From positions 1 through 64,000 of the IMG/VR virus record IMGVR_UViG_3300023105_001349: a DNA stretch of 64,000 nucleotides; one strand, given 5' to 3'. The notes below the pieces were generated by a model. That model was not told the origin of the DNA. It made no database searches and worked only from the letters and a program-made list of their open reading frames with translations. Origin of the DNA: a virus. Its lineage: Duplodnaviria; Caudoviricetes. A program made the translations under genes and the position numbers. Shown one piece after another: positions 14,303 to 63,113 of the stretch. Numbering within the stretch: the stretch's first letter is position 1; the number at the start of each line of letters is the position of its first letter.

Positions 14303-14329
14303 GTAAGATAGTGTATAGGATAACAAAGA

Positions 14330-39762: not shown

Positions 39763-39765
39763 ATA
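39758..39765 (+). promoter_or_regulatory. T4-type late promoter TATAAATA
   Basis: Exact T4 late consensus overlapping the stop of the previous gene. Confidence 0.65.
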
Positions 39766-40859: not shown

Positions 40860-40888
40860 TTGACAAACCATTAAATTTGTTATATAAT
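40860..40888 (+). promoter_or_regulatory. Consensus sigma70 promoter heading the enzyme cluster
   Basis: TTGACA 40860-40865, 17 nt, TATAAT 40883-40888; AGGAG SD 40898-40902. Confidence 0.85.
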
Positions 40889-40908
40889 ATACAAACTAGG
40901 AGTTTTGT

Positions 40909-41259
40909 ATGGATAACAGATTAAAAATGGCGTTGCATTTCTCAAACTACATGGCAACGTTAAACAACCAACGTAGAATTTTAAAAGAAAAATTTAAAAA
41001 CGACACCACTTACTACTTTAATGGTGGGCAGTTTACTATTGATAGATCTCTTATTGTGTATGTTAAAGATCTTTGCGATCAAAGCACTGTAGAAACTATT
41101 TTAATAGACGATAATCAAAATCCTATACAAGTATCTCCGTTATCAAATTTCCTAGAAGTTATTACTGACAAGTACAATAATGCAACTGCAACATATTTTA
41201 CAGAATATGATGCTCTAAGGAAAAATAGATCTGTGGAGAAACTTGTAGAGCATGAGTAA
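40909..41259 (+). CDS. Hypothetical protein, first gene of cluster
   Basis: Strong promoter and SD; overlap-coupled to the glycosyltransferase. Confidence 0.7.
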   Translation: MDNRLKMALHFSNYMATLNNQRRILKEKFKNDTTYYFNGGQFTIDRSLIVYVKDLCDQSTVETILIDDNQNPIQVSPLSNFLEVITDKYNNATATYFTEYDALRKNRSVEKLVEHE

Positions 41260-42097
41260 GGGTATCTTAACACTTGCATCAAACAATAGTGAATTTGATT
41301 ATTTGTTACAGGCACAGCAATTAGCAGAACGTGCATTAAAATACTTAGATTTACCTACTACTGTTGTTACAGATAAGTCATCTGTTGCAAATACTTCATG
41401 TAATCTATCTGTATTTGAAAATATAATTTATACAGACGAAGAATCTTTTGGAATTAGCAATCAACGAGAAATGTATGACGGCGATTACGGATTTAAAAAA
41501 GCACATTGGAAGAATGAAGCAAGACCTCTTGCTTACGATCTAACGCCATACGATGAAACTATACTAGTTGATACTGATATTGTAATTTGTAATAGTGATT
41601 GGAATATATGTTTTGACCAACCACACAATTTTATGATATACAAAGACTGTATAAATCTATCAGAGAATCATTGGCCTTATCAATATGAAAAATTAGGAGA
41701 AATAGGTCCAGACTTTTACTGGGCAAGTGTTGTATTTTTTAGAAAGACTGATGAAAATAAAATTTATTTTGATTTGTTAAAGCATATAAAAGAAGAATGG
41801 ATACATTATACTCATGTGTATTCTTTGCCATCTAAAAAATATAGAAGCGATTACGCTTTTAGTATTGCAATACACATTGTTAACGGATTTAAGAAAGGCG
41901 ACTTTGCTAAAAATATGCCAGGACAACTGTATTATATAACAGACAAAGGTATATTAAAAGAAATAGATAACGAGAATATGTTACTTTTAATTAATGATCC
42001 TACATACCCAAGAAAATTTACTGCTTGTAGAACTAAAAAAATGAATGTTCATGTTATGAATAAGTTTAGTTTGGAGAGGTGCTTATGCGAGGAATAG
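41252..42097 (+). CDS. GT-A glycosyltransferase (GT8-like)
   Basis: YDLTPYDETILVDTDIV (DxD), YWASVVFFRK, SDYAFSIA. Confidence 0.75.
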   Translation: MSKGILTLASNNSEFDYLLQAQQLAERALKYLDLPTTVVTDKSSVANTSCNLSVFENIIYTDEESFGISNQREMYDGDYGFKKAHWKNEARPLAYDLTPYDETILVDTDIVICNSDWNICFDQPHNFMIYKDCINLSENHWPYQYEKLGEIGPDFYWASVVFFRKTDENKIYFDLLKHIKEEWIHYTHVYSLPSKKYRSDYAFSIAIHIVNGFKKGDFAKNMPGQLYYITDKGILKEIDNENMLLLINDPTYPRKFTACRTKKMNVHVMNKFSLERCLCEE

Positions 42098-42831
42098 TAT
42101 TGTATGCATCTGGCGAAAAGTACGAAGAACAAGCAGAGCTTTGTGCATCTAGCATTCGTAAACACAATAAAGAAATTAGTATTACTACAGTTATAGAAAC
42201 GGACACTGGTAGATTTGCAACTGATGGTAGATGTAACATATATCAAGAATCAATATATGATGAAACTATTGTTTTAGATACTGACACATTAGTATTAGAT
42301 AACTTAGATTATGTTTGGGAGTGTTTATCGCAGCAAGACATTTACTATACTACAAAAGCATTTACCTTTAGAGGCGATGTTATTAACGACACGTTTTATA
42401 GAAAAACATTTATTAAAAATAATTTACCTAATGTGTACAATGCATTTTACTATTTTAAAAAATCTAAAGCAGCAGATGAGTTTTATAAAGTACAAAAAGA
42501 AGTAAACGATAACTGGAAAGATGTGTATGCAGAGTTTTGTCCGTTTCACACTCCTACTAAACCTAGTATGGATGTTAACACTGCTATTACTAGTTTAATT
42601 ACAGGAACAAATTTTTATAAAAGCAATATTCCACATCTAGTACACATGAAACCTAGAATACAAGGATGGGAAAATAATCCAGAGCACTGGCAAGATAAGG
42701 TTGGTGTTTATTTAACAGACGATTGTGAATTGTTTATTGGTAATAATAAACAACACGGTATATTTCATTATACAGAAAATGATTTTGTAACCAAAGAAAA
42801 GGTAAGGAAGTATCAATGTCAGAACAGTTAA
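42085..42831 (+). CDS. GT-A glycosyltransferase (GT8-like); likely ATG 42085 (track start 42079)
   Basis: IYQESIYDETIVLDTDTL (DxD), LPNVYNAFYYFKK, VHMKP; paralogous to preceding gene. Confidence 0.75.
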   Translation: MRGIVLYASGEKYEEQAELCASSIRKHNKEISITTVIETDTGRFATDGRCNIYQESIYDETIVLDTDTLVLDNLDYVWECLSQQDIYYTTKAFTFRGDVINDTFYRKTFIKNNLPNVYNAFYYFKKSKAADEFYKVQKEVNDNWKDVYAEFCPFHTPTKPSMDVNTAITSLITGTNFYKSNIPHLVHMKPRIQGWENNPEHWQDKVGVYLTDDCELFIGNNKQHGIFHYTENDFVTKEKVRKYQCQNS

Positions 42832-43352
42832 TGTACTTGTGTTGGAACGACAAAGGTTCTATTACAAGAATGTCCGGACAAGAAATTCCTAATTCTATTG
42901 CAGTGCCTATTAAAGCAATAGAAGATGTTGTATTAGGTAAAGAAAATATTTCAAAATATAAAATTAAATTTAATACAGAAGAAAAGAAGTATGAACTAGT
43001 AGACGATGAAAATTTTGAATTAATGACTTTTAGAATAAAAGACAGTATTCATAAAATTAATCCAAATACAGTTAGCGATTACGATTTTAAAATTGTACAA
43101 GATACAAAAAATAAAACGTGGACATTTAAATTAGTACAAGAATTAAATGTTGTACTTGATAAAGATCTTTGGTTTGCGTGTACACAAAAAGACAACCCTA
43201 ATATTGTGTTAAGAACGTTTTTTGTTAATCTAAAAGAACTTACTGAAAACGAAATAACAGTAGGTTTCATTAATGACAAAGAAGAGTCTAATAAAGATGT
43301 AAGTATCTTTACAGCCAAGGCATTTGATAGATATAGTTACATACAGGTATAA
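42816..43352 (+). CDS. Hypothetical protein in glycosyltransferase operon
   Basis: Overlapping neighbours on both sides; no recognisable motif. Confidence 0.6.
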   Translation: MSEQLMYLCWNDKGSITRMSGQEIPNSIAVPIKAIEDVVLGKENISKYKIKFNTEEKKYELVDDENFELMTFRIKDSIHKINPNTVSDYDFKIVQDTKNKTWTFKLVQELNVVLDKDLWFACTQKDNPNIVLRTFFVNLKELTENEITVGFINDKEESNKDVSIFTAKAFDRYSYIQV

Positions 43353-43353
43353 A

Positions 43354-44958
43354 ATGAAAGTAGTAGATTACGATATAATTTATTTAAGTTACGATGAACC
43401 TAATGCAGAGAAGAATTATGCAGATCTTCTTACTAAAGTTCCGTGGGCAAAACGTGTACACGGTGTAGAAGGCTCAGATGCTGCACATAAGGCTTGTGCT
43501 GATTTAAGCGAAACAGATAGACTAATTGTAATAGACGGCGATAATGTTATTAATCAAGAATTTGTTAATCAAGAGTTTGAAGTAGATCCTAATGTAGATC
43601 TAAGTAGAAGTGTACTCAGTTGGACGGCTAAAAATATTATTAACGGCTTAGAATACGGCAACGGCGGTATTAAAAGTTGGCCAAAAGATGTACTGCTAAA
43701 CATGCGTACACACGAAAATGCTCCACCTGATAATATACAAGCTCAAGTAGAATTTTGTTGGGATATTAATTATTATCATATGGAAGGCTGTTATAGTACA
43801 GTACTTAATAATGAAACACCGCAGCAAGCATGGAGAGCAGGTTTCCGTGAAGGTGTCAAAATGGCATTAAAAGAAGGCAGAAAAGTTTCACCTTTAGATT
43901 TTAAAAAATTACATCAAGGCAATTTAGATAGACTGTATATTTGGACAATGGTAGGCTCAGATGTTGATAATGGACTATGGGCAATCTACGGAGCAAGACA
44001 AGGCTTGTATATGACAATGTGTACAGACTGGGATTATGTTAATGTTCGTGATTTTACATATCTAAATAATATGTGGGAAAACGAAAGAATTAAAGAAGAT
44101 GAATTGCTAATACATATACAAGCACTAGGTAATGATTTAATTAGTCAGTTAGATATTCCTATTGATCCTAACCCTTTGCTGCCAGGACAAAGTAAGTTCT
44201 TTAAGCAAGTATATACTAACCCAGCAAGAGCAAAAATGAAGCAAGCATCATTATCTGCTAGAAGTATTAGTAACTATGATATTGTGTTTATCAGTTATAA
44301 TGAACCTAACGCTGAAAAGAATTGGGAATTATTAAAACATAGATTTCCAAGAGCGCAACGTGTACACGGTGTAAAAGGTATTCACCAAGCACACATTGAA
44401 GCAGCAAAATTATCTAAAACGCCAATGACTTGGATTGTTGATGGTGATGCAGTAATTAAGGATAATTTTAATTTTGATTACTATGTAGACATAAAAGATT
44501 ATGATGTTGTTCATGTTTGGAGAAGCGAGAATAAAGTTAAAGGATTAGAATACGGCTATGGCGGTGTAAAATTATTCCCTACAGAATTAACTTTGAATAT
44601 GGATATTAGTAAGCCAGACATGACTACTAGCATCAGCAGAAAATTTAAACCTGTAAAAGAAGTAGCAAACATAACAGAATTTAATACAGATCCGTTCAAC
44701 GCCTGGAAGAGTGCGTTTAGAGAATGTGCAAAATTATCTTCTAAAATTATTGATAGACAGAAAGATGATGAAACAGATATTCGCTTAGATGTATGGACAA
44801 GTGATACTGGCAATAATGAACCTTTTGGTGATTATGTTACTCAAGGTGCAAGAGCCGGTAGAGAGTACGGTACTGCTAATCGCGGTAATGTAGACGCACT
44901 AAAAATGATAAACAACTTTGATTGGTTAAAGGAAAAATTTAATGCTAGAACCATTTGA
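43354..44958 (+). CDS. Tandem two-domain glycosyltransferase-like protein (likely ATG 43354; track start 43324)
   Basis: Two homologous halves: YDI..SY.EPNAEKN...RVHGV.G...AH...(V/I)DGD and G(N/Y)GG(I/V)K...AW..(G/A)FRE. Confidence 0.7.
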   Translation: MKVVDYDIIYLSYDEPNAEKNYADLLTKVPWAKRVHGVEGSDAAHKACADLSETDRLIVIDGDNVINQEFVNQEFEVDPNVDLSRSVLSWTAKNIINGLEYGNGGIKSWPKDVLLNMRTHENAPPDNIQAQVEFCWDINYYHMEGCYSTVLNNETPQQAWRAGFREGVKMALKEGRKVSPLDFKKLHQGNLDRLYIWTMVGSDVDNGLWAIYGARQGLYMTMCTDWDYVNVRDFTYLNNMWENERIKEDELLIHIQALGNDLISQLDIPIDPNPLLPGQSKFFKQVYTNPARAKMKQASLSARSISNYDIVFISYNEPNAEKNWELLKHRFPRAQRVHGVKGIHQAHIEAAKLSKTPMTWIVDGDAVIKDNFNFDYYVDIKDYDVVHVWRSENKVKGLEYGYGGVKLFPTELTLNMDISKPDMTTSISRKFKPVKEVANITEFNTDPFNAWKSAFRECAKLSSKIIDRQKDDETDIRLDVWTSDTGNNEPFGDYVTQGARAGREYGTANRGNVDALKMINNFDWLKEKFNARTI

Positions 44959-45985
44959 GTTATTAGATAGATTTGAATTGCTATACAACAATAATGTTGC
45001 TTTAGCTGATCTACGACGAGCATATATTGATAAAGATATTAGTTCAATAATGCGTTTAGCTCATGCAGACGAAGATGTAAGAAAAGCAGTAGTTGATAAA
45101 AATAAGCACAGTATTTTTAGATTACTTGGCAGTGGGTCGTTTGTTGGCGACATAGAAGATTTAAGAAAGTTTACACTAACAGATAATTTACATTCTTTGT
45201 TCAGACTTGTTAAAAATGACGAGTTGCGTAAAGCAGTAATTGAAGAAAATTTATATAGCATATTTAAATTTGCACCAGATGAAGATTTACGAAAATTAGT
45301 AATACAAGATAATAGATGGAAACTTTGGCCAGTATTGTCTAGGTACACAGATACACAATTTGTTGAAGCATTTAAAAATTTATTTGCTAACGAAATAGAA
45401 TACGATAAAGATTGTTTTAGTAGAGGACAGTTAAAAAGTAAACTGTGGTTGGTTGAAGAACTATCTAAACTAAATCAAAGTTTAGGAACAGTATATCTTT
45501 GTGCAGGTTGGTATTCTACATTAGCAACTATGTTATTTGAATCTAAAATAAATGTTGACAAAATTAGAAGTTTTGATATAGATGAATCGTGTGTTTCAAT
45601 TGCAGAAGTTATGAACAAGCCTTGGGTTTTAGACAAATGGAAGTTTAAAGCAACAACTAAAGATATTCATAATATTAATTTTAATATGCACTCTTATGTT
45701 ACAAAAAATTCTAAAGGTGAAGAAACAAAAGTTGTAGAATCACCTGATACTATTATTAACACAAGTTGTGAGCATATTGAAAACTTTGCAGAATGGTATA
45801 ATAAAATTCCTAAAAATAAATTAGTTATATTACAAAGTAACAATTACTTTGAAATTGAGGATCACATTAACTGTTCTAAATCACTAGAAGAATTTAGTGA
45901 AACTGCTCCTATGTCAAATGTTTTATATGAAGGACGTCTAGACTTAGGACAATACATAAGGTATATGAAAATTGGAATTAGATAA
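44942..45985 (+). CDS. Class I SAM-dependent methyltransferase with N-terminal helical repeats
   Basis: VYLCAGWY (motif I), IRSFDID, INTSCEH, VILQSNNY. Confidence 0.75.
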   Translation: MLEPFELLDRFELLYNNNVALADLRRAYIDKDISSIMRLAHADEDVRKAVVDKNKHSIFRLLGSGSFVGDIEDLRKFTLTDNLHSLFRLVKNDELRKAVIEENLYSIFKFAPDEDLRKLVIQDNRWKLWPVLSRYTDTQFVEAFKNLFANEIEYDKDCFSRGQLKSKLWLVEELSKLNQSLGTVYLCAGWYSTLATMLFESKINVDKIRSFDIDESCVSIAEVMNKPWVLDKWKFKATTKDIHNINFNMHSYVTKNSKGEETKVVESPDTIINTSCEHIENFAEWYNKIPKNKLVILQSNNYFEIEDHINCSKSLEEFSETAPMSNVLYEGRLDLGQYIRYMKIGIR

Positions 45986-46196
45986 TTTAACATTGCGCGA
46001 GTTACAAACAGAGAGTGCAAGAGCTCTGAGTACCATGCAGGCTACAAATAATAATATATTTCAATTTAATAAACAAGCACACCATAATAGTCATAATTGG
46101 TATAAGGCTGTAATTACATGGTATGTAGAACAATACGGAGATTTGCCTAGCAAAGCAGGTCCGGGCAAAGATGTAGAATTGGTTTATAATGTATAG
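45972..46196 (+). CDS. 74-aa protein directly upstream of the radical SAM array
   Basis: Overlaps both neighbours; phage-like codon usage. Confidence 0.7.
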   Translation: MELDNLTLRELQTESARALSTMQATNNNIFQFNKQAHHNSHNWYKAVITWYVEQYGDLPSKAGPGKDVELVYNV

Positions 46197-47274
46197 ATAT
46201 CAAGACATAAAAGAAGTACATTTAGAAATTACGCAACGCTGTCAAGCGGCTTGTCCTATGTGCGATAGAAATTGTAATGGTGGCCCTGATAATCCGCATA
46301 TTACAAATGCAGAACTTACTCTTGAAGATTGTAAGCGTATCTTCAAACCAGACTTTATTAAACAACTTAAAACAATGTATATGTGTGGTAACTTAGGTGA
46401 TCCTATTGTTGCTAAAGATACACTAGAAGTATTTGAATATTTTAGAGAACACAATCCTACAATGTGGTTGAGTATGAATACAAATGCAGGAGCACGAGAT
46501 GAAGATTGGTGGAGATCACTTGCGAGAGTTTTTGGCAGATATGGTGCTGTTATTTTTAGCGTGGACGGGTTGGCTGATACTAATCACATATATCGTCAAG
46601 GTGTTAATTGGAGCATAGTAGAGCGCAGTGCGAAAGCATTTATAGATGCTGGCGGCAGAGCTCGCTGGGATTTTATTGTGTTTGAACATAACGAACATCA
46701 AGTTGAAAGAGCAGAAGAATTATCAAAGCAATACGGCTTTGAAAGATTTGTAGCAAAAAAGACAGGACGTTTTTATAGTACAGCACAACTTACAGGCAAG
46801 GAAACACATCAAGCAATTAATCGCAAAGGTGAAGAAACAGCAGAACTTGCAAAACCTAAAAAACAAGAATATATCAATCTTGCTCTTTTAAAAGAAGAAG
46901 AAATAACTAAAACTTATGGTAGCATGGAACAATACTATAACAAGTGTAGCATTGATTGTAAAGTTGCCAAACAGGGTAGTATTTTTATTACAGCAGAAGG
47001 ACTATTAATGCCTTGCTGTTGGACTGCTGGACGTATGTATAAATGGTGGCATCCTGATTATCGTGTAGAACAAATTTGGGATCACATTGACAACGCTGGA
47101 GGTAAAGAAGGTATTGATGTAATTAATAAAGATCTTGAAACTGTAATGAATGGTACACTATTAAAAGGTATACAAGACAGTTGGAATATTGACGGAATTA
47201 AAAACGGTAAACTAGGTGTATGTGCAATGAAGTGCGGAACAGAGTTTGACCCATATACGGAACAGTTTAAATGA
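46189..47274 (+). CDS. Radical SAM enzyme with C-terminal SPASM/twitch domain
   Basis: CQAACPMC (CxxxCxxC), CGNLGDP, TNAG, FSVDG; C-terminal C..IFITAEGLLMPCC...C..KC. Confidence 0.9.
   Translation: MYRYQDIKEVHLEITQRCQAACPMCDRNCNGGPDNPHITNAELTLEDCKRIFKPDFIKQLKTMYMCGNLGDPIVAKDTLEVFEYFREHNPTMWLSMNTNAGARDEDWWRSLARVFGRYGAVIFSVDGLADTNHIYRQGVNWSIVERSAKAFIDAGGRARWDFIVFEHNEHQVERAEELSKQYGFERFVAKKTGRFYSTAQLTGKETHQAINRKGEETAELAKPKKQEYINLALLKEEEITKTYGSMEQYYNKCSIDCKVAKQGSIFITAEGLLMPCCWTAGRMYKWWHPDYRVEQIWDHIDNAGGKEGIDVINKDLETVMNGTLLKGIQDSWNIDGIKNGKLGVCAMKCGTEFDPYTEQFK
46499..46618 (+). CDS. Candidate nested 39-aa membrane peptide (+1 frame within radical SAM gene)
   Basis: AGGAG 46488-46492, ATG 6 nt later; MKIGGDHLREFLADMVLLFLAWTGWLILITYIVKVLIGA; lies in a GC-enriched patch. 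Confidence 0.35.
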   Translation: MKIGGDHLREFLADMVLLFLAWTGWLILITYIVKVLIGA

Positions 47275-48323
47275 TTAATAAGATTGAATTAGAAATTACT
47301 AGTGATTGTAATGCAGCCTGCCCAGGATGTGCTAGAACACTTAATCCTGATAAGTTAAAAATACAAAGTTTTACATATCATGATATTTTAAGATTATTCC
47401 CTACTGAAGCAGATATTCGCGGTAAAGAATTTAAATTTTGCGGAGTATTAGGAGATCCTGCTCTTAATGTTGAATGTGTTAAGATGGTAGATTACCTAGT
47501 TACTAACGGAGCATATTGTGAACTAAGCACAAATGGCGGTTATCAAACTGCTGACTGGTGGCGTAGTTTAGGCAACATCGCAGCAGAATATCCTGGTAGA
47601 GTGTATATACATTTTTGTGTTGACGGACATAAAGAAACTAATCATATCTATCGTGTTAATACAAAGTTTAATATTATTGAACGTAATATGAAAGCGTTCT
47701 CTGATGCTGCACCTAAAAATAGTGCATCTTGGATCTATATTGTATTTGATCACAATGAGCATGAATTAGAAGCAGCAAAAGAACATGCAGCCAAGTTAAA
47801 TTTTGAATTTGCTACACGAACAGGTATGCGTAACAGTTACCATGATTGGGTAGCACAATTAGGTAAAAAGAACAATAAACAGGAAAAGGTTATTACAACT
47901 ACAGGTGCTAAAGAACATAGTAAAAAAGAAGTTGTAAAAGAACTTGATAAGTTTATTGAAGAATACAAAACAACACAAGTTGATGAAGATAAAATTAAAG
48001 CAGTTACTGATAGTATTGTTTGCAAATATATTCACGAAGGTGAAATCTTTATTGCAAGCGATCTTACTATGTGGCCTTGCTGTTTCCTTTGGGATAGTGC
48101 TTTTAAAAATAAAGAAGACATTGTAAACAAGTTAGCACAATTTGAACCAAATTGGAATAGTTTAAAACACCATTCTATACAAGAAGTTATGCAACATGAG
48201 TGGTATAGCAAGTTATTAGGTGCAAGTTGGCACCCTTATCATAGTATGCATTTTGCTAGATGTATTAAGACATGTGCAAAAAATAAAGCATATCACAACG
48301 AAATAAACTACACAGTTAATTAG
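47271..48323 (+). CDS. Radical SAM enzyme with C-terminal SPASM/twitch domain
   Basis: CNAACPGC, CGVLGDP, STNGG, FCVDG; IFIASDLTMWPCC...CIKTC; paralogue of 46189. Confidence 0.9.
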   Translation: MINKIELEITSDCNAACPGCARTLNPDKLKIQSFTYHDILRLFPTEADIRGKEFKFCGVLGDPALNVECVKMVDYLVTNGAYCELSTNGGYQTADWWRSLGNIAAEYPGRVYIHFCVDGHKETNHIYRVNTKFNIIERNMKAFSDAAPKNSASWIYIVFDHNEHELEAAKEHAAKLNFEFATRTGMRNSYHDWVAQLGKKNNKQEKVITTTGAKEHSKKEVVKELDKFIEEYKTTQVDEDKIKAVTDSIVCKYIHEGEIFIASDLTMWPCCFLWDSAFKNKEDIVNKLAQFEPNWNSLKHHSIQEVMQHEWYSKLLGASWHPYHSMHFARCIKTCAKNKAYHNEINYTVN

Positions 48324-48335
48324 GTAAGTATTAAT

Positions 48336-54981: not shown

Positions 54982-54982
54982 A

Positions 54983-55306: not shown

Positions 55307-56421
55307 TGACTAAACGAAAACACAGTTGCGATCTTCCATTTCATCATATAGCAACACGACCAGACGGTCGTGTGTTTCCGTGTTGTTATTTTAGATGGGA
55401 AGAAACTCCTACAGACTTAACTGTTGATCACAAAGATCCTTTTAATCATCCGTTTTTAGTTGACTTAAGAAATAAAATGCTTAATGACGAATATATTGAA
55501 GGTTGTAGTAGATGTTATAAAGACGAAGAAACAAGCGGACATAGTATGCGCCTTGATATGAATAGCGTAAAACACTTTGGATTTCCTGAAGACAGTCGCG
55601 GCAAAGTTCCTAAACTAACTAACATAGACTTAACATTTAGTAACGTTTGTAATAATAAGTGTAGAATGTGCGGACCAGAGCTTAGTACTAGTTGGTATAG
55701 TGATGCTAAAAAGTTAGGTATTAAGCATAGTGGTATTATTGCCAAAAATACAATATTAGATGATTATGATTTAAGTGAATTAAGATTTATAAAACTGTTA
55801 GGTGGCGAGCCACTAATGGAAGAAGCTAAATTAATTGACTTACTTAAAAAATGTAATCGCAAAGAACTTACACTGCTTTTAATAACAAACACTACAATAC
55901 GTCCAAAAGGAGAACTATACGAACTGTTAAAAGAAGTTAAAAATCTTAAAGTAGAACTTAGTATAGATAGTTACGGCCGGTTGAATGATTTCTTACGTAA
56001 AGGTAGTGATTGGGACGAAGTATGGGAGAATGTCTTTTGGTTTAAAGAACAAGGGGTTGAACCTAGTGTACATAGTGTTGCAAGTATATACAATGTTAAC
56101 AAAGTTCACGAACTAATTAGTTTTTGTAAAACTTTAGAACTAGATCACAAATATGTTATGTTAGATGGTCCTGATTGGATGATGCCAAGAAACTTACCTA
56201 ACTTTGCTAAAAAAGAATTAATCGAAGAATACAAAGATAAGAAAGCACCTATATACAAGTTAATTGTAGAAGAATTAAAACAAGAAGGTAATTTTAGAAA
56301 GTTTTTAGACATGGATAATAAACTTAATGAAATACGGAAAGAACATTGGGCGCCTCATAACGAATGGTTGCTTAAAGTCTTGACAACATACAATGAAGAT
56401 GTTATTATAAAATATGAATGA
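55306..56421 (+). CDS. N-terminal-twitch radical SAM enzyme
   Basis: CDLPF...PDGRVFPCC...CSRC; CNNKCRMC; LLGGEP; TNT; SID. Confidence 0.9.
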   Translation: MTKRKHSCDLPFHHIATRPDGRVFPCCYFRWEETPTDLTVDHKDPFNHPFLVDLRNKMLNDEYIEGCSRCYKDEETSGHSMRLDMNSVKHFGFPEDSRGKVPKLTNIDLTFSNVCNNKCRMCGPELSTSWYSDAKKLGIKHSGIIAKNTILDDYDLSELRFIKLLGGEPLMEEAKLIDLLKKCNRKELTLLLITNTTIRPKGELYELLKEVKNLKVELSIDSYGRLNDFLRKGSDWDEVWENVFWFKEQGVEPSVHSVASIYNVNKVHELISFCKTLELDHKYVMLDGPDWMMPRNLPNFAKKELIEEYKDKKAPIYKLIVEELKQEGNFRKFLDMDNKLNEIRKEHWAPHNEWLLKVLTTYNEDVIIKYE

Positions 56422-57538
56422 AGATTTAAAATGGAGCGAGTATGACTTCTCTAAAATACCATTTGACGACATTGTTGGTGTTGGTCAACGTACTTTGCTT
56501 TATCGTGATATATTTACTGTTAGTTGGTTACTGGGAAGATTCTGTAACTACAGATGCTCCTACTGCTGGCCTTACGCCCGATCCGATCGTAAAGACCACC
56601 GTCCTACCGAGCTCTGCTTGCTTACAGTGGATGAAATTAAACGTCAAGCCCGAGACAATGGCTTCAATTCTTTCCACTTCTCCTTGTCAGGAGGAGAGCC
56701 TACTTTCCATCCTGGATACTTGGACATACTAAAGCATCTAGCAGACGATGTAGCAAACACAAACTATACTAGCGTACATATGACTAGTAATTGTAGTAGG
56801 AATATGGACTGGTTTAAACAATATGTTGAAGCAGTAAAACCGTTTCATCGAGCCAGCATAACAGCAAGTTTACACACAGAACATGTAAATACTACTGAAA
56901 GGATGGAGGAGTTTGCTAACAAACTCATCCTATGTCAAGAAAATGATGTCCAAGTTACGATCAATATGGTCATGGTTCCAGAACAGTTTGAACGAGACTG
57001 GAGCAATGCCTTATTCTTCCATTCCAGAGGCATTAATGTCACTCTCAAGCCTCAGTCTGATCCAACAGCATCAAGAGTTGTTGAGGGATATACAGAAGAA
57101 ATGCTCCAAAGACTCCACAACGGAATGCCCCAAAGAGCATACACAGAAGTAAAGAGAATCTGGAATGATAGACCAAAACCACAATTTGCACTACCTAGTT
57201 ATATAGACGGTATTAATGATGCCAGTGTACCGTGGCATATGCAAGTTGAATTAAGAGATAAAAACGGTAAAAAATGGTATATGGATCAAGCAGAAAGATT
57301 TAATGCCTTTAATTTTAATAAGTTTAAAGGATGGCATTGCTCTGCTGGATACAGTGGAATCATTATACGAGAGCCTGATGGCAGTGTAAAACGTAGTTAT
57401 AGTTGCCACGATGTACCATTAGGAAATATAGAAACAGGTTTTAAATTATTTGATAGCCCTAAACCCTGTATTACAGAAAGTTGCGTAAGTAGCGCAGACT
57501 CAAAGATCCCTAAACGATTAATAGCATCAAGTAAATAA
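56414..57538 (+). CDS. Radical SAM enzyme with C-terminal Cys cluster
   Basis: WLLGRFCNYRCSYC; LSGGEPT; TSN; GWHC...YSC...CITESC; paralogue of 53147. Confidence 0.9.
   Translation: MNEDLKWSEYDFSKIPFDDIVGVGQRTLLYRDIFTVSWLLGRFCNYRCSYCWPYARSDRKDHRPTELCLLTVDEIKRQARDNGFNSFHFSLSGGEPTFHPGYLDILKHLADDVANTNYTSVHMTSNCSRNMDWFKQYVEAVKPFHRASITASLHTEHVNTTERMEEFANKLILCQENDVQVTINMVMVPEQFERDWSNALFFHSRGINVTLKPQSDPTASRVVEGYTEEMLQRLHNGMPQRAYTEVKRIWNDRPKPQFALPSYIDGINDASVPWHMQVELRDKNGKKWYMDQAERFNAFNFNKFKGWHCSAGYSGIIIREPDGSVKRSYSCHDVPLGNIETGFKLFDSPKPCITESCVSSADSKIPKRLIASSK
56442..56732 (+). CDS. Candidate nested 96-aa protein with N-terminal hydrophobic helix (+1 frame)
   Basis: GGAG 56433-56436, ATG 5 nt later; covers a patch of about 49% GC. 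Confidence 0.35.
   Translation: MTSLKYHLTTLLVLVNVLCFIVIYLLLVGYWEDSVTTDAPTAGLTPDPIVKTTVLPSSACLQWMKLNVKPETMASILSTSPCQEESLLSILDTWTY
56913..57152 (+). CDS. Candidate nested 79-aa protein (+1 frame)
   Basis: TTG start after AAGGATGGAGGAG; covers a patch of about 42% GC. Confidence 0.3.
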   Translation: MLTNSSYVKKMMSKLRSIWSWFQNSLNETGAMPYSSIPEALMSLSSLSLIQQHQELLRDIQKKCSKDSTTECPKEHTQK

Positions 57539-57542
57539 TACT

Positions 57543-59027
57543 ATGCCTACATTTGACGCAATATTATTCACAGATACAGCCGCATATCCACATTGGACTA
57601 GAGGATATGGCGCTCACCGTCTTGCATCTCATTTAAGGACTCACGGATATAGCGTATTAGTAATAGATTTTAGTTTAGCACTACAGTTTGAAACTTGGAA
57701 AGAAATTTGCAAATATGCAATAGGTAGCAATACTTTATTCTTAGGATTCTCTACTACATGGTGGCCGTATAGAAATCCAGATCAAGATAATCCGTTTATT
57801 AATCCTAGTGTAAATATGGCAGACACACTTATAGATAACTTCAAAAAAGAAATGCCTGAAGATCGTACACTTACTTACGATGCTGCAAATGGAACAGTTA
57901 ATCGATGGATTGACGAAGCAAAGAATTATAATGAGAATATTAAAGTTTTAATTGGTGGAGCCAAAATTGATTGGTACAGAGATTTCCCAGCAGATTATTT
58001 TTTTAGTGGATTAAGCGAAACACAAATAGTAGATTTTTTAACAGAAGAACTTCGAATTTGGCCAAGATATATTAAACACGATACACATGCAGATCATCAT
58101 AGATGGGATTGGTTGCATAGTAGCACACGATATACAGATTTAGATTTTATAGTTCCGGGAGAAGTTCTTACATTGGAAACAGCCCGTGGATGTAAATTTA
58201 AATGTTCATTTTGTTCTTTCCCTTTGATAGGGCAAAAAAAGATTGCAGATTATACAAAAACAGAAGAAACACTTTATCAAGAACTTTTAGAGAACTGGGA
58301 GAAGTGGGGAATAACTGATTACTGGATTGCAGATGACACATTCAACGATAATACTGAGAAGTTAAGAATGTTTCATAAAATTACAAAAAAACTACCGTTT
58401 GATCTTAACTATAGAGCATATTTAAGATTAGACGTAATGGCAATGCATCCTGAACAAATAGGATTGCTTTACGAATCAGGAATTAAAAACTGTTGGTTTG
58501 GAATTGAAACTTTCCATCCTGAGGCAGCAAAAGCAATAGGCAAAGGCATGCCCGAAGAGAAACGTAAACAAGCATTATATGATATGCAAAAAGTATGGGG
58601 CAATGATGTAGCAGTTGCTAGTGGATATATTGTAGGATTGCCTCATGAGCCAGTAGATCATATATACAAACAAGCAGAGTGGTTTATGGAAGATAATAAT
58701 CCAGTAAATCATAATCCTAACTTTATGCCTTTAATTATTAATCCTCCCGGAGCGTATGAATATCATCCAATGAGTGCAATTGACAGAAATCCTGAGAAGT
58801 ACGGATATAATATTCCTGATATGAAACGTTTTAATTTTTGGACTAAAGACGACGGCACCGGCATTGAATCTTTTGAGAAAGCCTGGCAAATAAGCGGAGA
58901 TATTACTCAAAAGATTGCTAGTAGGGGTAATAAAATAATTAATGAATTAGACTATCAACACGGTATTAAAGATCCACAAGAAGAATACTTTAAGCCGTTA
59001 GTGGAGAAATTAAAAAATGGAAGATGA
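57543..59027 (+). CDS. Cobalamin-binding (class B-type) radical SAM enzyme
   Basis: N-terminal GAHRLASHLRTHGYSVLVID B12-binding-like domain; LETARGCKFKCSFC; GIETF; IVGLPHE. Confidence 0.85.
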   Translation: MPTFDAILFTDTAAYPHWTRGYGAHRLASHLRTHGYSVLVIDFSLALQFETWKEICKYAIGSNTLFLGFSTTWWPYRNPDQDNPFINPSVNMADTLIDNFKKEMPEDRTLTYDAANGTVNRWIDEAKNYNENIKVLIGGAKIDWYRDFPADYFFSGLSETQIVDFLTEELRIWPRYIKHDTHADHHRWDWLHSSTRYTDLDFIVPGEVLTLETARGCKFKCSFCSFPLIGQKKIADYTKTEETLYQELLENWEKWGITDYWIADDTFNDNTEKLRMFHKITKKLPFDLNYRAYLRLDVMAMHPEQIGLLYESGIKNCWFGIETFHPEAAKAIGKGMPEEKRKQALYDMQKVWGNDVAVASGYIVGLPHEPVDHIYKQAEWFMEDNNPVNHNPNFMPLIINPPGAYEYHPMSAIDRNPEKYGYNIPDMKRFNFWTKDDGTGIESFEKAWQISGDITQKIASRGNKIINELDYQHGIKDPQEEYFKPLVEKLKNGR

Positions 59028-59877
59028 TTACCTATTAGGTCCAGATAAAATGCTGTATCAAATACCAGTAAACTTTCCTACACTTCCGGAAGGATCAAGA
59101 GTAGGAATATTCTTCTCGGGTGGCATGGAATCAAGTTTAATTGCTGCTATAGCAATGCATCAATATGGCAAAGATAATGTATTTTTATTTTATAGTGATT
59201 CTATGTTCTCTGGAAACAACAAAGTTATAGATAGAAATATACGAGCTAATGTAGAACGTAGTGCTGTTTTATTTGATAAAGAACCTATATACGTTGAAAC
59301 TGATTTAGAACTATTAGCAAACGATCGTAAAGAATTTGTAATTTCGTATACTCAACAAGTTATAGACGAATACAAATTATCTGGTATGTTATTTGGGTTT
59401 ACTAGATTGTTTTTTGAAGTAGAACCGTTTAAGGATGAAAGTTTAACATTAGAACAAATTGTAGATATGGCATACGAAACTCCAATGTTATATAAAGATA
59501 CAATTAGAGAATTTCACTTAGACACCAAAGAATATGCAGATCATTTACAAGATATAGATATTCCGTCTGAAGTATATCCTATACTTAGAGGAGCTCCTGG
59601 AATAAGAAGTCCGTTTGCTGAATTAAACAAAAAAGAAATTGTTGATTTATATGCACAATTAGGTATTTTAGAAATATCATATGCAACTAGTTCTTGTATC
59701 ATGGACGAGTTATACGATACAGGCAAACATTGTGGCAAATGTTTTAATTGTCAACAACGATATGATGCTTATCAAATGGCAGGATATCCTGATAATACTC
59801 CGTACTTAAATACAGATATAGTAGACCGATACAATGAGTTACAGAAAGTAAGACATGAACTTTATAACAAAGACTGA
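59017..59877 (+). CDS. Second QueC-like PP-loop ATPase
   Basis: FFSGGMESS; C-terminal SC...HCGKCFNCQQR. Confidence 0.75.
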   Translation: MEDDYLLGPDKMLYQIPVNFPTLPEGSRVGIFFSGGMESSLIAAIAMHQYGKDNVFLFYSDSMFSGNNKVIDRNIRANVERSAVLFDKEPIYVETDLELLANDRKEFVISYTQQVIDEYKLSGMLFGFTRLFFEVEPFKDESLTLEQIVDMAYETPMLYKDTIREFHLDTKEYADHLQDIDIPSEVYPILRGAPGIRSPFAELNKKEIVDLYAQLGILEISYATSSCIMDELYDTGKHCGKCFNCQQRYDAYQMAGYPDNTPYLNTDIVDRYNELQKVRHELYNKD

Positions 59878-60418
59878 TTTTAAAGTAGACCTAGAACAAA
59901 TGCGTTCTGACTTAGATGCATTATTAAATGTGCATGACGGTTGGCCTAAAGAAGATTTTGTACGCAAAATGTCGGGTAATCAACTTAGTGCTAAACACCG
60001 TCTAAACGAAGACATTTGGTTAGATGGTCAAGGTAATTTATGGGATCCTGTTAAAGAAGAATTTATAGCAACAGAAGCAGACTTTACAGAGTATAATCCT
60101 CATTTAGGATCGTATACTGTACAAGCATTAAAAGATTTAGAAACGCACGAAGGTGTTAAATTTGGTCGTATACGTTATATGCGATTAGAGCCTAAAAAAG
60201 GTCTAAGTATACATAAAGACTTTGATGCTAGATATCATTTTGTATTACATACAAATGACAATGCTCTATTTGGAGAAGTAACAAATAGTAATGTCAAAGC
60301 CGTTTGTTATCATTTACCTGCTGATGGGCATGCCTATAAAGTAGATACTACTAGAGAACATTTTGTTTATAACGGCGGTTGGGAAGATAGAATACACTTA
60401 GTAATTAATATTGCTTAG
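59855..60418 (+). CDS. Asp/Asn beta-hydroxylase-like Fe(II) oxygenase
   Basis: RIRYMRLEPKKGLSIHKD, RYHFVL, VDTTREH, RIHLVI. Confidence 0.8.
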   Translation: MNFITKTDFKVDLEQMRSDLDALLNVHDGWPKEDFVRKMSGNQLSAKHRLNEDIWLDGQGNLWDPVKEEFIATEADFTEYNPHLGSYTVQALKDLETHEGVKFGRIRYMRLEPKKGLSIHKDFDARYHFVLHTNDNALFGEVTNSNVKAVCYHLPADGHAYKVDTTREHFVYNGGWEDRIHLVINIA

Positions 60419-61804: not shown

Positions 61805-61809
61805 ATAGT

Positions 61810-61854
61810 TACTTAGCCACTATTATATGCGCAGTTAATAAAAGCGAATAAGTA
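61810..61854. promoter_or_regulatory. Divergent regulatory region: two TAAGTA motifs around a TGCGCA palindrome
   Basis: TAAGTA minus 61815-61810, TGCGCA 61828-61833, TAAGTA plus 61849-61854. Confidence 0.45.
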
Positions 61855-61874
61855 TATTATAGAAAGAGGTTCAC

Positions 61875-62414
61875 ATGAATTTACAAGATAAAAAAGATTT
61901 AATACAAAGAATTATTGACAGTCAAGATATTATTGAAGAAGAATATCTAAACTTTAATCGCCGTCGTGTTCCTCTACCTGATTATGATGATGGCGATATT
62001 GTACCTGGCTGGACAGGTACAGCATTATGGTGGGATTATAAAGCATGGCCTAGTTCTCAAAGACGCTGTCCTAGAGTAACTGAATTAGTACGCAATGGTC
62101 CTGACCATAGAGCAACTGGATGGTTAGTATTAGATCCAAAAAGTAAAACACCAGAACATAATCATAAAGACTGGGGACATAAAATCATTTGTCATTTGCC
62201 AACTGTACTTCCAAAAGGTGATAGTGGATTTGTAGTTGAAGGCGAAACATATAATTGGAAGATGGGCGAATTCTTTGCGTTCGATGCTTCAAAAAATCAT
62301 TATGGATATAACGATACTAATTTTGAAAGATCGCTATTTGTATTAGATTTTGATTATAAAGAATGGATTGATGTACTAGAACCGTACATGCATCTAGATA
62401 ATAAGGCGTCTTAG
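61875..62414 (+). CDS. Asp/Asn beta-hydroxylase-like Fe(II) oxygenase
   Basis: WLVLDPKSKTPEHNH, IICHLP, WKMGEFFAFDASKNH, ERSLFVLDF. Confidence 0.8.
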   Translation: MNLQDKKDLIQRIIDSQDIIEEEYLNFNRRRVPLPDYDDGDIVPGWTGTALWWDYKAWPSSQRRCPRVTELVRNGPDHRATGWLVLDPKSKTPEHNHKDWGHKIICHLPTVLPKGDSGFVVEGETYNWKMGEFFAFDASKNHYGYNDTNFERSLFVLDFDYKEWIDVLEPYMHLDNKAS

Positions 62415-63113
62415 ACGCCCATACAAGCCCGTAGAGCAGCTTAAAAAGAACTGATATCCACTTGCATCCTCGCATATTGCATCGTGTACTATAGACGTAT
62501 CTATTAGGTATAAACGCCCTGGTTCTACTTCAGTAGTGTCTACTAATTCGTCGTTTACAGCGTATCTTAATTTAATACCATCTGTAGTAGTACCCCAAAG
62601 TCTAATCCAAGGACTAGGTACAGCAGTATCGATGTGTGGTTTAAAATGAGCACCGGGCTTCCAATAAAGTATATTTGAACGCAACCAATGGTTACTAAAT
62701 TGTTTTAATGGTTGTAACGATGGTAAATCCATAACTTCTGTTTCTTGTGTAAAGTCAGTTTCTAGTAATGGATTATCTGGATTCTTTAAATTGTATTCGT
62801 ATAATGAACCATTTACGGGATCGTTATGATGTAGTTCGCCTGTTTGATTTACAAGTGCTAACCCGTATCTTGGTAAATGTAAGTGTTCATTCCCCCATTG
62901 TTCAAAAAAATCATTGTATGCTACAATTTCTTTATTAAATTGTTCAACATCAATTTTTATATCAATAGGAGTTAAAAAGAAAGGATGGAGTCGAGTATAA
63001 TCTTCCTCGTGAATCCATCCTACTAAAGAGTTGTATTTTTGTTTTTGAATGTCAGAAGTTAAAAAAACTTCTTTTGATAATCTAATTATTTCTTCGGAGT
63101 TTACCCGCATCAA
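62394..63113 (-). CDS. Asp/Asn beta-hydroxylase-like Fe(II) oxygenase
   Basis: YWKPGAHFKPHID (HxD), EPGRLYLIDTSIVHDA. Confidence 0.75.
   Translation of the reverse strand: MMRVNSEEIIRLSKEVFLTSDIQKQKYNSLVGWIHEEDYTRLHPFFLTPIDIKIDVEQFNKEIVAYNDFFEQWGNEHLHLPRYGLALVNQTGELHHNDPVNGSLYEYNLKNPDNPLLETDFTQETEVMDLPSLQPLKQFSNHWLRSNILYWKPGAHFKPHIDTAVPSPWIRLWGTTTDGIKLRYAVNDELVDTTEVEPGRLYLIDTSIVHDAICEDASGYQFFLSCSTGLYGRLRRLII

Follow-up and report, generated by a model that had tools for sequence, protein, structure and literature searches.

What does a tailed phage build with ten radical SAM enzymes, and on what? The DNA analysed here, a window of 64,000 nt, comes from an uncultured marine giant phage and is a fragment of a Rak2/Atu_ph07-like jumbo myophage genome. 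Directly behind its tail-fibre genes lies an island of ∼20 kb, which a preliminary description took for an assembly line making a heavily modified glycan, glycolipid or peptide on the virion, DNA or host surface.

Extent and transcription signals of the island

The ORFs and motifs of the cluster (Table 1; genes are named by their first coordinate) lie where that description had placed them. Its same-strand, mostly overlapping genes were recovered, but they number 21 rather than about 23: from 40909 to 60418, all junctions between plus-strand ORFs are overlaps or gaps of ≤12 nt. A 22nd plus-strand gene, 61875, lies further downstream. The consensus sigma70 promoter proposed for the operon was borne out and is the sole perfect match within 20 kb; the identical site is present in the nearest relative, L011, and of 80 related loci 30 have perfect sigma70 promoters, with 33 copies oriented like the island and 4 the other way. 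Since the island promoter is of sigma70 type and conserved in relatives, it points to early or middle expression. The internal late motifs said to favour virion decoration were not upheld. The T4 late box TATAAATA has one copy in the whole window, outside the island, and the local late-like box NTAAATA, which lies 25–33 nt before six structural genes, precedes no island gene at that spacing. A single NTAAATA copy is found 12 nt ahead of 57543.

Table 1. Features of the island and of the module distal to it
Coordinates	Strand	Feature	Basis
40860..40888	+	sigma70-type promoter, TTGACA-17 nt-TATAAT, then GGAG and first ATG	12/12 match
40909..41259	+	first island gene, 116 aa, no family	34% identical to same-position RsoM2USA ORF354
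41252..42097	+	GT8-like (glycogenin-like) glycosyltransferase paralog 1, DTD motif	hhalign; 31% identical to RsoM2USA ORF353
42079..42831	+	GT8-like glycosyltransferase paralog 2	glycogenin profile match; 33% identical to RsoM2USA ORF352
42816..43352	+	fast-evolving 178-aa protein, no family match	diverged in nearest relatives
43324..44958	+	tandem GT-A (GT2-like) fold protein, two DGD-motif domains	AF2, Foldseek, VIA
44942..45985	+	N-terminal ∼20-aa helical repeats, C-terminal class-I SAM methyltransferase fold	AF2, Foldseek
45972..46196	+	phage-specific 74-aa accessory protein of radical SAM enzymes	natural fusions
46189..47274	+	radical SAM type A (CxxxCPxC, GDP motif, C-terminal CC..C..C auxiliary domain), core gene	motifs
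47271..48323	+	radical SAM type A paralog	motif and family A signatures despite Pfam 24.8
48336..49736	+	N-terminal-twitch radical SAM (NF033640)	417 bits, cut-off 170
49733..51040	+	N-terminal-twitch radical SAM (NF033640)	195.6 bits, cut-off 170
51012..51845	+	QueC-like PP-loop ATPase (SGGADS; CGQCWWC)	CxxCxxC; nearest Atlas clusters carry QueC
51838..53157	+	N-terminal-twitch radical SAM (NF033640)	371 bits, cut-off 170
53147..54313	+	radical SAM type C (W.TGRRC...CSYC, C-terminal Cys cluster)	motifs
54310..54981	+	truncated type-A radical SAM core, 223 aa	Pfam 40.8 bits
54983..55306	+	detached auxiliary Fe-S (SPASM/twitch-like) domain, belonging to 54310	BLASTP
55306..56421	+	N-terminal-twitch radical SAM (NF033640)	241.9 bits, cut-off 170
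56414..57538	+	radical SAM type C, core gene	Pfam 57 bits
57543..59027	+	class-B (B12-binding)-like radical SAM	weak NCBIfam matches
59017..59877	+	QueC-like PP-loop ATPase (SGGMES; CGKCFNC)	Pfam QueC 43.1 bits, C-terminal part only
59855..60418	+	Asp/Asn beta-hydroxylase-family (cupin) oxygenase, last operon gene	PF05118, 40.1 bits
60405..61247	-	membrane delta9-type fatty-acid desaturase, separate module	PF00487, 72 bits
61187..61804	-	205-aa protein, no family	no match
61875..62414	+	second Asp/Asn beta-hydroxylase-family oxygenase	PF05118, 69.9 bits
62394..63113	-	239-aa protein, HxD...H pattern seen by eye	no family match

Enzymes of the island

The preliminary description had counted ten CxxxCxxC radical SAM proteins, a free SPASM domain, three glycosyltransferase proteins, a methyltransferase, two QueC-like ATPases and a hydroxylase in the operon, with a later hydroxylase and a desaturase, and these assignments all held. 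The CX3CX2C motif is present in all ten radical SAM proteins, of which only 47271, at 24.8, falls below the Pfam PF04055 cut-off of 29.5 and the other nine exceed it; three are of type A, four N-twitch, two type C and one B12-type. The four N-twitch enzymes (48336, 49733, 51838 and 55306) carry a Cys-rich auxiliary domain N-terminal to the core, as in NF033640 (N_Twi_rSAM), a family name that denotes architecture rather than reaction. Beyond that family, the island brings its four members together with three other radical SAM architectures. The best PDB sequence matches are SkfB, viperin and BlsE (E 1e-5 to 5e-3, core only), and all NCBIfam equivalog scores are far under their cut-offs, including the best matches of 57543, to PhpK, a ladderane-lipid B12 radical SAM enzyme and HpnJ. 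The twitch/SPASM maturases and sugar enzymes (SkfB, BtrN, BlsE, anSME and PqqE) likewise join a CX3CX2C core to an auxiliary Fe-S domain, but the similarity is confined to the core and four island proteins have that domain at the N-terminus.

The free domain, 54983, matches residues 258–306 of 47271, in its C-terminal auxiliary domain (BLASTP E 4e-5; SPASM E 0.054). It represents the separated tail of 54310, a truncated radical SAM, so that one enzyme is encoded in two pieces; no ortholog of 54310 at ≥45% identity was found in relatives. The accessory protein 45972 is 65–86% identical across phages, conserved over its entire length, and also occurs naturally fused to radical SAM enzymes, preceding one of 46189 type (P0126) and following a different one (P0124).

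In the front half, the product of 40909 had no Pfam, NCBIfam or PHROG match. The families of 41252 and 42079 are paralogous (hhalign 99.8%, E 1.6e-28), and the 42079 profile matches glycogenin-1 structures (GT8) at E 1e-6. For 43324, which probably begins at the ATG at 43354, the AF2 model (pLDDT 92) returned only GT-A and nucleotidyl-transferase folds in Foldseek and VIA (Z 10–12), the neighbours including the virus capsid/fibril glycosyltransferases PBCV-1 A64R and Mimivirus R699. The C-terminal domain of 44942 (pLDDT 91) matches TehB, NodS and Coq5 in Foldseek (E 6e-8, TM 0.55–0.65).

The desaturase module lies on the opposite strand and is absent from most related loci; 60405 is probably a lipid auxiliary gene outside the operon. 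It encodes the only protein with membrane segments, the island proteins having neither membrane segment nor signal peptide. The preliminary description had called 61187 GNAT-like and 62394 a further hydroxylase; neither product had a family match in Pfam or PHROGs, so both calls are putative, that for 62394 going back to the HxD...H pattern.

Relatives in phages and bacteria

A random, unconserved gene content under relaxed selection would have spoken against the proposed assembly line. Instead, the genes are intact, conserved and widespread: the island occurs on at least 291 IMG/VR contigs, with 6–13 radical SAM genes each, under strong purifying selection (dN 0.065–0.35, dS saturated). Related loci show 24 distinct arrangements; the core stays fixed and tailoring cassettes are exchanged around it. 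The most conserved gene, 48336, is 83–93% identical in 80 loci (dN 0.065, dS about 1.8); 46189 is present in 32 of 34 full loci at ≥45% identity, 56414 is 75–88% identical in phages, and the triad 49733-51012-53147, with 49733 first, recurs, being adjacent in many relatives. PHROGs and 50,697 phage records contain almost nothing similar to the island genes and no published description of the island was found, which agrees with the earlier view that this biosynthetic line has no characterised phage counterpart.

The cultured Ralstonia phage RsoM2USA carries a minimal syntenic form. The common order is baseplate wedge, giant structural protein, fibre genes, 40909, GT8, GT8, an unknown gene, GT-A, (radical SAM), GT-A and methyltransferase, the counterpart of 43324 being split around the radical SAM gene (43–46% identity). 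Island identities of 31–46% are about equal to that of the baseplate wedge itself. Beside a second N-twitch locus of this phage stand genes for typical sugar O-tailoring enzymes, three of them SGNH-like DUF6071 genes and one for a NodU/CmcH-type carbamoyltransferase; the locus lies between DNA ligase, clamp-loader-like and helicase genes.

Core genes are also found in Bdellovibrionota chromosomes at 40–68% identity. By gene, the values are 44–49% for 46189, 60–64% for 48336, 37–51% for 51838, 56–70% for 56414, 32–46% for 44942 and 40–47% for a single-domain form of 43324; up to three paralogs of 51012 occur, and a homolog of 45972 is absent from these loci. A B12-type radical SAM gene also adjoins the Bdellovibrionota module. 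More distant N-twitch homologs were surveyed in 20 bacterial loci, where the commonest families among 100 non-radical-SAM neighbours were GT2 (14), GT2_3 (9) and GT1/GT4 (5), with epimerase/dehydratase, DegT aminotransferase and UDP-glucose dehydrogenase also represented. Two flagellin genes stand immediately beside two N-twitch genes in one Bdellovibrionales locus.

Candidate products

The reading that we favour, at a probability of about 45%, is a soluble cytoplasmic line that would assemble a short glycan, followed by radical tailoring, probably on a virion protein. We infer its chemical steps, acceptor and role as follows. The GT8 proteins 41252 and 42079 and both GT-A domains of 43324 would transfer sugars to the acceptor. 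The ten radical SAM enzymes would then carry out C–H functionalisations (epimerisation, deoxygenation/dehydration, C-methylation or oxidation), with 45972 serving the three type-A enzymes; the two PP-loop ATPases may adenylate a carboxyl or acetamido group, yielding an amide, amidine or nitrile, and the class-I methyltransferase and cupin hydroxylase would attach further groups. The acceptor would most likely be a protein from the adjacent baseplate/fibre module, and would be cytoplasmic because the island proteins have no membrane segment or signal peptide and export genes are lacking.

Among the products originally offered, a glycan is favoured by the four GT-A domains and by the GT2/GT4 and sugar-nucleotide neighbours, while the case for a glycolipid or host-surface product is weakened by the absence of membrane segments from all proteins but the desaturase and by the island's lack of a flippase, polymerase or exporter. 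Also in favour of a glycan are the A64R and R699 structural likeness, the purifying selection, the cassette swapping, the fast divergence of the fibre tip together with the front of the island, the RsoM2USA identities and O-tailoring genes, and NDP-sugar epimerase/dehydratase-family genes in 4/4 larger related fragments. The earlier argument from position gains support from the front-half synteny behind baseplate/fibre genes in the distant RsoM2USA. Against the glycan reading, fibre adjacency may merely mark a recombination-tolerant region; the GT-A fold is common also to nucleotidyltransferases such as IspD; the island itself contains no gene for sugar-nucleotide synthesis, and NTP_transferase was not found in five fragments. 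The Bdellovibrionota modules stand outside classical polysaccharide loci (flanks flotillin, cytochrome c and DUF1501), peptide maturases are the nearest relatives of the twitch/SPASM enzymes among characterised proteins, and we know of no characterised member of the NF033640, type A or type C families.

Virus-encoded virion glycosylation has precedents. Chlorovirus PBCV-1 (A64R and partners) and the Mimivirus fibril cluster (R699) have cytoplasmic GT-A enzymes, without host-type export, beside structural genes, and mycobacteriophage capsids and tail tubes are glycosylated (Freeman et al., 2023, as cited in PMC12619734). These systems lack radical SAM enzymes and PP-loop ATPases, unlike the island. 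Bacterial flagellin O-glycosylation islands, such as the Campylobacter Pse/Leg loci with the PP-loop amidotransferase PseA, share a soluble cytoplasmic pathway, hypervariable tailoring genes and PP-loop amidation enzymes; they differ in that no nonulosonic-acid synthase, CMP-transferase or Maf-type transferase was seen here, and to our knowledge radical SAM arrays are not a feature of them.

Hypermodification of DNA nucleobases is an unlikely alternative, in which the GT-A proteins, radical SAM enzymes, PP-loop ATPases and methyltransferase would make a glycosylated or amide-linked base for restriction evasion, perhaps drawing on a locus with FolE that lies about 12 kb further on. Glycosylation of phage DNA is an established process, as is base hypermodification that depends on a radical SAM enzyme. 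The conserved sigma70-type promoter, the only consensus promoter, and the absence of a late box before any island gene fit such early functions at least as well as virion decoration. Known clusters (7-deazaguanine DpdA/QueCDE; 5-hmdU-derived with a radical SAM enzyme; glucosyl-hmC) resemble the island in early expression (here predicted), soluble cytoplasmic enzymes, QueC-like and radical SAM components and glycosyltransferases; the downstream FolE, radical-SAM, PRTase and HIT locus lacks QueC, of which the island has two relatives, and replication-type genes surround the second RsoM2USA locus. Yet no canonical QueC was detected (59017 scores 33.5 bits on the QueC equivalog TIGR00364, cut-off 150) and no hydroxymethylase lies in the island; Pfam models found neither TGT/DpdA nor QueD on the 79.5-kb record, a thymidylate-synthase-type gene occurs in only 1/5 fragments, the cellular homologs adjoin GT2/GT4, sugar-nucleotide and flagellin genes rather than restriction or Dpd genes, and the island's synteny is with fibre genes, as far as RsoM2USA. 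A little harder to credit is a soluble nucleoside- or sugar-derived metabolite or cofactor, made early to manipulate host or competitors and attached to no macromolecule. The early-type promoter, the want of an acceptor candidate and of export genes, and the free-standing Bdellovibrionota core would suit it, as would BlsE among the NCBIfam and PDB matches; radical SAM, PP-loop, methyltransferase and glycosyltransferase enzymes together typify nucleoside and aminoglycoside pathways (BlsE, BtrN, toyocamycin). Four GT-A domains, some glycogenin-like, suggest instead chain building on a macromolecule, cassette swapping beside host-range genes is unusual for a metabolite, and transporter and self-resistance genes are absent.

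We think it improbable that the radical SAM enzymes crosslink, epimerise or methylate a peptide or virion protein in RiPP fashion, with PF05118 enzymes hydroxylating Asp/Asn and a glycosyltransferase adding an S-/O-linked sugar as in glycocins. SkfB as top PDB match (E 1e-5), many weak NCBIfam matches to peptide maturases, SunS and ThuS S-glycosyltransferases among the neighbours of 43324, a 45972 that is free or fused like PqqD/RRE domains, and the protein substrates of PF05118 members point that way; but with gaps of ≤12 nt and 45972 conserved full-length there is no precursor-like short ORF with a variable core, leader peptidase and exporter are absent, no PqqD/RRE Pfam match was found, and bacterial N-twitch genes adjoin glycosyltransferases rather than peptides. 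Very improbable, in our view, is remodelling of the host envelope (LPS, lipid A or membrane lipids, for instance for superinfection exclusion): the distal desaturase and two LpxO-family (PF05118) oxygenases, the lipid enzymes (ladderane, HpnJ) among the weak matches of 57543 and the inclusion of LPS core transferases in GT8 are set against the minus-strand desaturase, missing from most related loci, as sole membrane protein and the absence of Und-P-linked, flippase, ligase and transport genes.

If the favoured glycan decoration of a virion protein is right, cassette exchange between close relatives would diversify that decoration. Compared with the nearest relative, divergence is fastest in the stretch from the fibre tip, 39792, through the initial four genes of the island (30–52% identity), and the radical SAM core is 77–93% identical; 42816 is just 22–31% identical in the nearest relatives, where its neighbours reach 47–93%.

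Organization and expression of the island

The window comprises the first 64 kb of an IMG/VR virus record 79.5 kb long, whose estimated completeness of 22% (CheckV) implies a genome of ~350 kb. Its baseplate wedge protein is 34–37% identical to those of jumbo myophages of the Rak2/Atu_ph07/SCTP-2/XacN1 type, while megablast of 14.5-kb and 20-kb queries against 50,697 phage records found no DNA match to a cultured phage. Genes upstream of the island encode T4-type replication and recombination proteins (gp46/47-like), a late sigma factor resembling gp55, virion and baseplate components and several fibre proteins; a 5320-aa ORF lies there as well. An alternative genetic code was ruled out, because TAA, TAG and TGA all terminate island genes and the 5320-aa ORF stays open under table 11. 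The position of this ORF is occupied in the cultured Ralstonia phage RsoM2USA by a 2541-aa virion structural protein.

Features of the window, of the same record downstream (contig coordinates, with those of locus L009 in brackets) and of two other loci; single island genes are given by start coordinate
Feature	Position	Strand	Remarks
Single 5320-aa ORF	14330–30292	+	between baseplate wedge and fibre genes
T4 late box TATAAATA	39758–39765		before fibre gene 39792
sigma70 promoter, TTGACA-17-TATAAT	40860–40888		perfect; precedes the island
Island	40909–60418	+	21 ORFs, overlapping or ≤12 nt apart
Most divergent island gene	42816–43352		22–31% identity to relatives
N-terminal-twitch (N-twitch) radical SAMs	48336, 49733, 51838, 55306	+	NF033640
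Type A radical SAMs	46189, 47271, 54310	+	CxxxCPxC, C-terminal CC..C..C domain
Divided type A radical SAM	54310–55306		223-aa core and 107-aa auxiliary-cluster ORF 54983
Type C radical SAMs	53147, 56414	+	
B12-class-like radical SAM	57543	+	
Membrane desaturase	60405–61247	−	delta9-type; boxes HRLLSH, HRQHH, HNNHH
MoxR-like AAA ATPase and DUF2201 metallopeptidase/VWA protein	65740–68236 (5740–8236)	−	paired
FolE locus	71431–75106 (11431–15106)	−	FolE (132 bits), weak radical SAM, PRTase, HIT protein
Two flagellin genes directly upstream of two N-twitch genes	L144 6228–8350, 10001–11257		Bdellovibrionales MAG
RsoM2USA ORF199–203	L163 7991–13567		three DUF6071 paralogs, GCS...GGSSN-type motifs, SGNH-hydrolase-like

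The nearest relative has a promoter in the same position as that of the island, and of 80 related loci 30 contain perfect sigma70 promoters, 33 of them directed along the island strand and 4 along the opposite one. The T4 late box is found once in the 64 kb as compared with 11.6 expected. A shorter box, NTAAATA, often followed by TATAGGA, lies 25–33 nt before each of six structural genes (4552, 10883, 30315, 34867, 38233 and 39792) and probably serves this phage as late promoter. At that spacing it precedes no island gene; one copy lies 12 nt before 57543. The late motifs that the preliminary description had placed inside the island are thus not borne out. Together, the sigma70 promoter and the distribution of late boxes indicate that the island has an early-type promoter of its own; read-through from the fibre genes is possible.

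Enzyme families encoded by the island

The CX3CX2C motif is present in ten island proteins, and nine of these exceed the Pfam PF04055 threshold of 29.5 bits that, with the motif, defines the radical SAM superfamily. The tenth, 47271, scores 24.8–26.1 bits and retains the motif. By these signatures all ten are assigned to the superfamily. Four score 417 (48336), 371 (51838), 242 (55306) and 196 bits (49733) against NF033640 (N_Twi_rSAM), where at least 170 bits over the whole protein and a twitch-like Cys domain preceding the core are required; Cys29, Cys91 and Cys94 are invariant upstream of CX3CX2C, and the four are accordingly classed, on sequence, as full members. Class B radical SAM methyltransferases combine an N-terminal cobalamin-binding domain with the radical SAM core; the top NCBIfam matches of 57543 are all B12-radical SAM families, at ≤62 bits versus cut-offs of 360–600, and Pfam found no PF02310 in this protein. 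In the divided type A gene, the core and 54983 are separated by TAA plus one base, and the ~70-aa linker of its paralogs is absent; it has no close ortholog in relatives.

The small protein 45972 is 65–86% identical across phages. In other lineages it forms the N-terminal part of a fusion with a 46189-type radical SAM (P0126, 46% identical to 46189) or is joined to the C-terminus of a different one (P0124). These natural fusions suggest that 45972 is a radical SAM accessory module rather than a RiPP precursor.

Profile searches of the PDB with families 43324, 44942 and 41252 returned nothing meaningful, and the folds of the first two were therefore examined by structure prediction. 43324 consists of two domains in tandem, and its DGD motif is invariant. 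The model of its C-domain (pLDDT 92) matches GT-A and nucleotidyl-transferase folds only, with Foldseek giving E 4e-5 for GT-A enzymes and VIA a Z of 10–12 over residues 1–141, although nucleotidyltransferases (IspD) give scores like those of GT-A enzymes. The model conforms to the GT-A (GT2-like) definition, a Rossmann-like NDP-sugar-binding fold with a DxD motif, and 43324 is a putative glycosyltransferase. The family profile of 42079, of which 41252 is a paralog, matches glycogenin (GT8) structures at E 1e-6 over ~100 N-terminal residues. GT8 assignment calls for sequence membership of PF01501 and a DxD motif, and Pfam gave nothing for either protein at E ≤0.01. The C-domain of 44942 has a class I methyltransferase fold by predicted structure and Foldseek; that class is defined by a seven-stranded Rossmann-like fold and a SAM-binding motif I, which here takes the atypical form LCAGWYS, and 44942 has no Pfam or PDB sequence match.

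Two further proteins carry the SGGxDS-type PP-loop and C-terminal Cys-rich zinc motif of QueC-like ATPases (SGGADS and CGQCWWC in 51012; SGGMES and CGKCFNC in 59017). Pfam QueC scores 43.1 bits in 59017 against a cut-off of 22, and among the Atlas clusters nearest to 51012, 14–64% of members carry QueC. By these criteria both are divergent QueC-like PP-loop ATPases. Membership of canonical QueC (7-cyano-7-deazaguanine synthase) does not extend to them as judged by the equivalog TIGR00364, which gives 33.5 bits in 59017, over the C-terminal 50 residues only, versus a cut-off of 150.3, and has no match in 51012. A phmmer search of the PDB with both retrieved the PP-loop stretch of LarE only (E 0.12). 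PF05118 scores 40.1 bits in 59855 and 69.9 bits in 61875 (cut-off 22.6), which places them in the Asp/Asn beta-hydroxylase family of oxygenases that includes LpxO. The desaturase on the minus strand resembles the desaturases that cyanophages carry as lipid auxiliary genes. Neither Pfam nor PHROGs offered a confirming family match for the labels GNAT (61187) and third hydroxylase (62394), and ten island proteins searched against PHROGs gave no family and one weak match of unknown function.

Conservation in phages and in Bdellovibrionota

Relatives of 48336 at 83–93% identity occur in at least 291 IMG/VR contigs, some reaching ~350 kb, and include 2915 metagenome proteins, many of them from Tara. 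Across the 34 loci covered in full over ±10 kb, radical SAM genes number 6–13 per locus (median 10), arranged in 24 distinct orders of orthologs. A near-constant backbone of 43324, 45972, 46189 and 48336, often with 44942, 47271 and 56414, is set among variable genes, and the triad of 49733 (N-twitch), 51012 (QueC-like) and 53147 (type C) travels as a unit. Values of dN are 0.065–0.35, with synonymous sites saturated even against the nearest relative, indicating that all genes are under purifying selection. Random, unconserved gene content under relaxed selection, which the preliminary description had named as one of the grounds for abandoning its cluster, is thereby removed from consideration. 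In this lineage, represented by hundreds of marine contigs, ~5% of a ~350-kb genome goes to 6–13 oxygen-sensitive iron–sulfur enzymes from families without a known reaction, which are maintained under strong purifying selection. Full-text literature searches that covered arrays of radical SAM enzymes in phages, radical SAM genes of marine jumbo phages and the involvement of such enzymes in flagellin glycosylation turned up no published description of the island.

Divergence is fast in a single block made up of the fibre tip and the first four island genes. Within it, 42816 keeps its position as far as ORF351 of RsoM2USA, without detectable sequence similarity, and is a candidate specificity factor or acceptor.

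The 343.8-kb genome of RsoM2USA carries a minimal syntenic form of the island, which makes the nature of the pathway approachable at the bench. Directly after a fibre-like gene come homologs of 40909, 41252 and 42079, then a gene placed like 42816. The first and second 43324 domains follow as separate genes with one N-twitch radical SAM gene between them, and the 44942 methyltransferase domain comes last. These genes (ORF354–347) are 31–46% identical to the island, and all eight are annotated as hypothetical. Before them come baseplate wedge ORF362, the 2541-aa structural ORF361 and virion-confirmed structural proteins (PMC8504454), so that the order from baseplate through structural to island-like genes is identical to that in the window.

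Core genes are also found in Bdellovibrionota at 40–68% identity in a genome scan: a single-domain 43324-like glycosyltransferase, a 44942-like methyltransferase, 48336, 46189, 56414 and 51838, together with paralogs like 53147, 47271 and 51012. Some of these loci lie within a 2.9-Mb chromosome or contigs of 0.8–0.9 Mb. The absence of the phage baseplate wedge gene from five such genomes (2.9–4.0 Mb) indicates that the loci are cellular, and contig sizes of 0.8–2.9 Mb likewise exclude misbinned phage as their source. They are flanked by ordinary cellular genes rather than by a polysaccharide locus, and the 45972 HMM found no copy in true Bdellovibrionota loci. The closest cellular homologs (60–68% identity, L093–L113) are all from Bdellovibrionota, those of other bacteria reaching only ~30%. 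These sequence relationships suggest gene exchange with Bdellovibrionota, or Bdellovibrionota as host of the phage.

Substrate and product of the pathway

Membrane segments were found only in the desaturase, and the island contains no flippase, polymerase, ligase or transporter. With no other membrane protein and no export genes, the substrate is placed in the cytoplasm and would be a protein, nucleic acid or soluble molecule. Assembly of a glycan with radical tailoring is the best-supported reading, because of the four GT-A domains, the abundance of glycosyltransferase genes around homologs, the presence in RsoM2USA of partners of the sugar-tailoring kind and the NDP-sugar epimerase-family genes present in all four larger related fragments. 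Around distant homologs (~28–35% identity) at 20 bacterial loci, GT2 (14 of 100 neighbours), GT2_3 (9) and GT1/GT4 (5) are the commonest families, and sugar-nucleotide enzymes are likewise among the neighbours. In RsoM2USA, a second N-twitch gene (ORF202) lies between three DUF6071 genes and a carbamoyltransferase, at a locus adjoining DNA ligase and helicase genes. Among acceptors, a virion protein is favoured, since the synteny with the fibre module extends to RsoM2USA and the fibre tip shares its fast-diverging block with the first four genes of the island. Assignment to the virus-encoded virion glycosylation systems would call for a glycan on a virion protein that depends on the viral genes. 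Ten abundant bands of RsoM2USA virion proteins have been identified, in a study in which glycans were not analysed (PMC8504454). The flagellin genes of the Bdellovibrionales MAG may provide a flagellin-modification context for the N-twitch family.

Modification of DNA by the pathway keeps weight, given the early-type promoter, the QueC-like genes and a FolE locus 12–15 kb downstream. Against it stand the failure of TGT/DpdA and QueD models to match anything on the record and the position of 59017 under the QueC equivalog cut-off. A 7-deazaguanine DNA modification system would comprise a TGT-like DpdA with preQ0/CDG genes (FolE/QueD/QueE/QueC). Pfam models likewise detected no QueC, QueD (PTPS) or TGT at the FolE locus, although a divergent DpdA could escape such models. 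A soluble metabolite as product and remodelling of the envelope are both possible, at lower odds, as is a RiPP. A RiPP cluster would comprise a precursor gene, an RRE/PqqD-like element and a leader peptidase or exporter, and the island's sequence does not provide this set: its close packing leaves no free intergenic gaps, 45972 is conserved over its entire length, and none of its proteins matched a PqqD, peptidase or ABC family. The product would reveal whether phages decorate virions or DNA by radical chemistry, and would explain a gene module common to jumbo phages and Bdellovibrionota. Its identity would also give a function to NF033640 and two more radical SAM families, as well as to the QueC-like enzymes that have radiated extensively in viruses.

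Returning to glycan assembly, we tentatively propose, at roughly three chances in ten, a new carbohydrate chemistry in which radical SAM arrays and QueC-like ATPases rewrite sugars of the tail apparatus in a globally distributed jumbo-phage lineage, and in which swapping of cassettes yields strain-specific virion glycans. The arrays would consist of uncharacterised enzymes of the N-twitch, type A and type C kinds, those of type A being served by their own accessory protein of 74 aa, and the machinery would be common to this lineage and to predatory Bdellovibrionota. If true, this would be a viral counterpart of O-antigen diversity. Elsewhere on the record, the MoxR-like/DUF2201 pair sits downstream of a minus-strand fibre gene.
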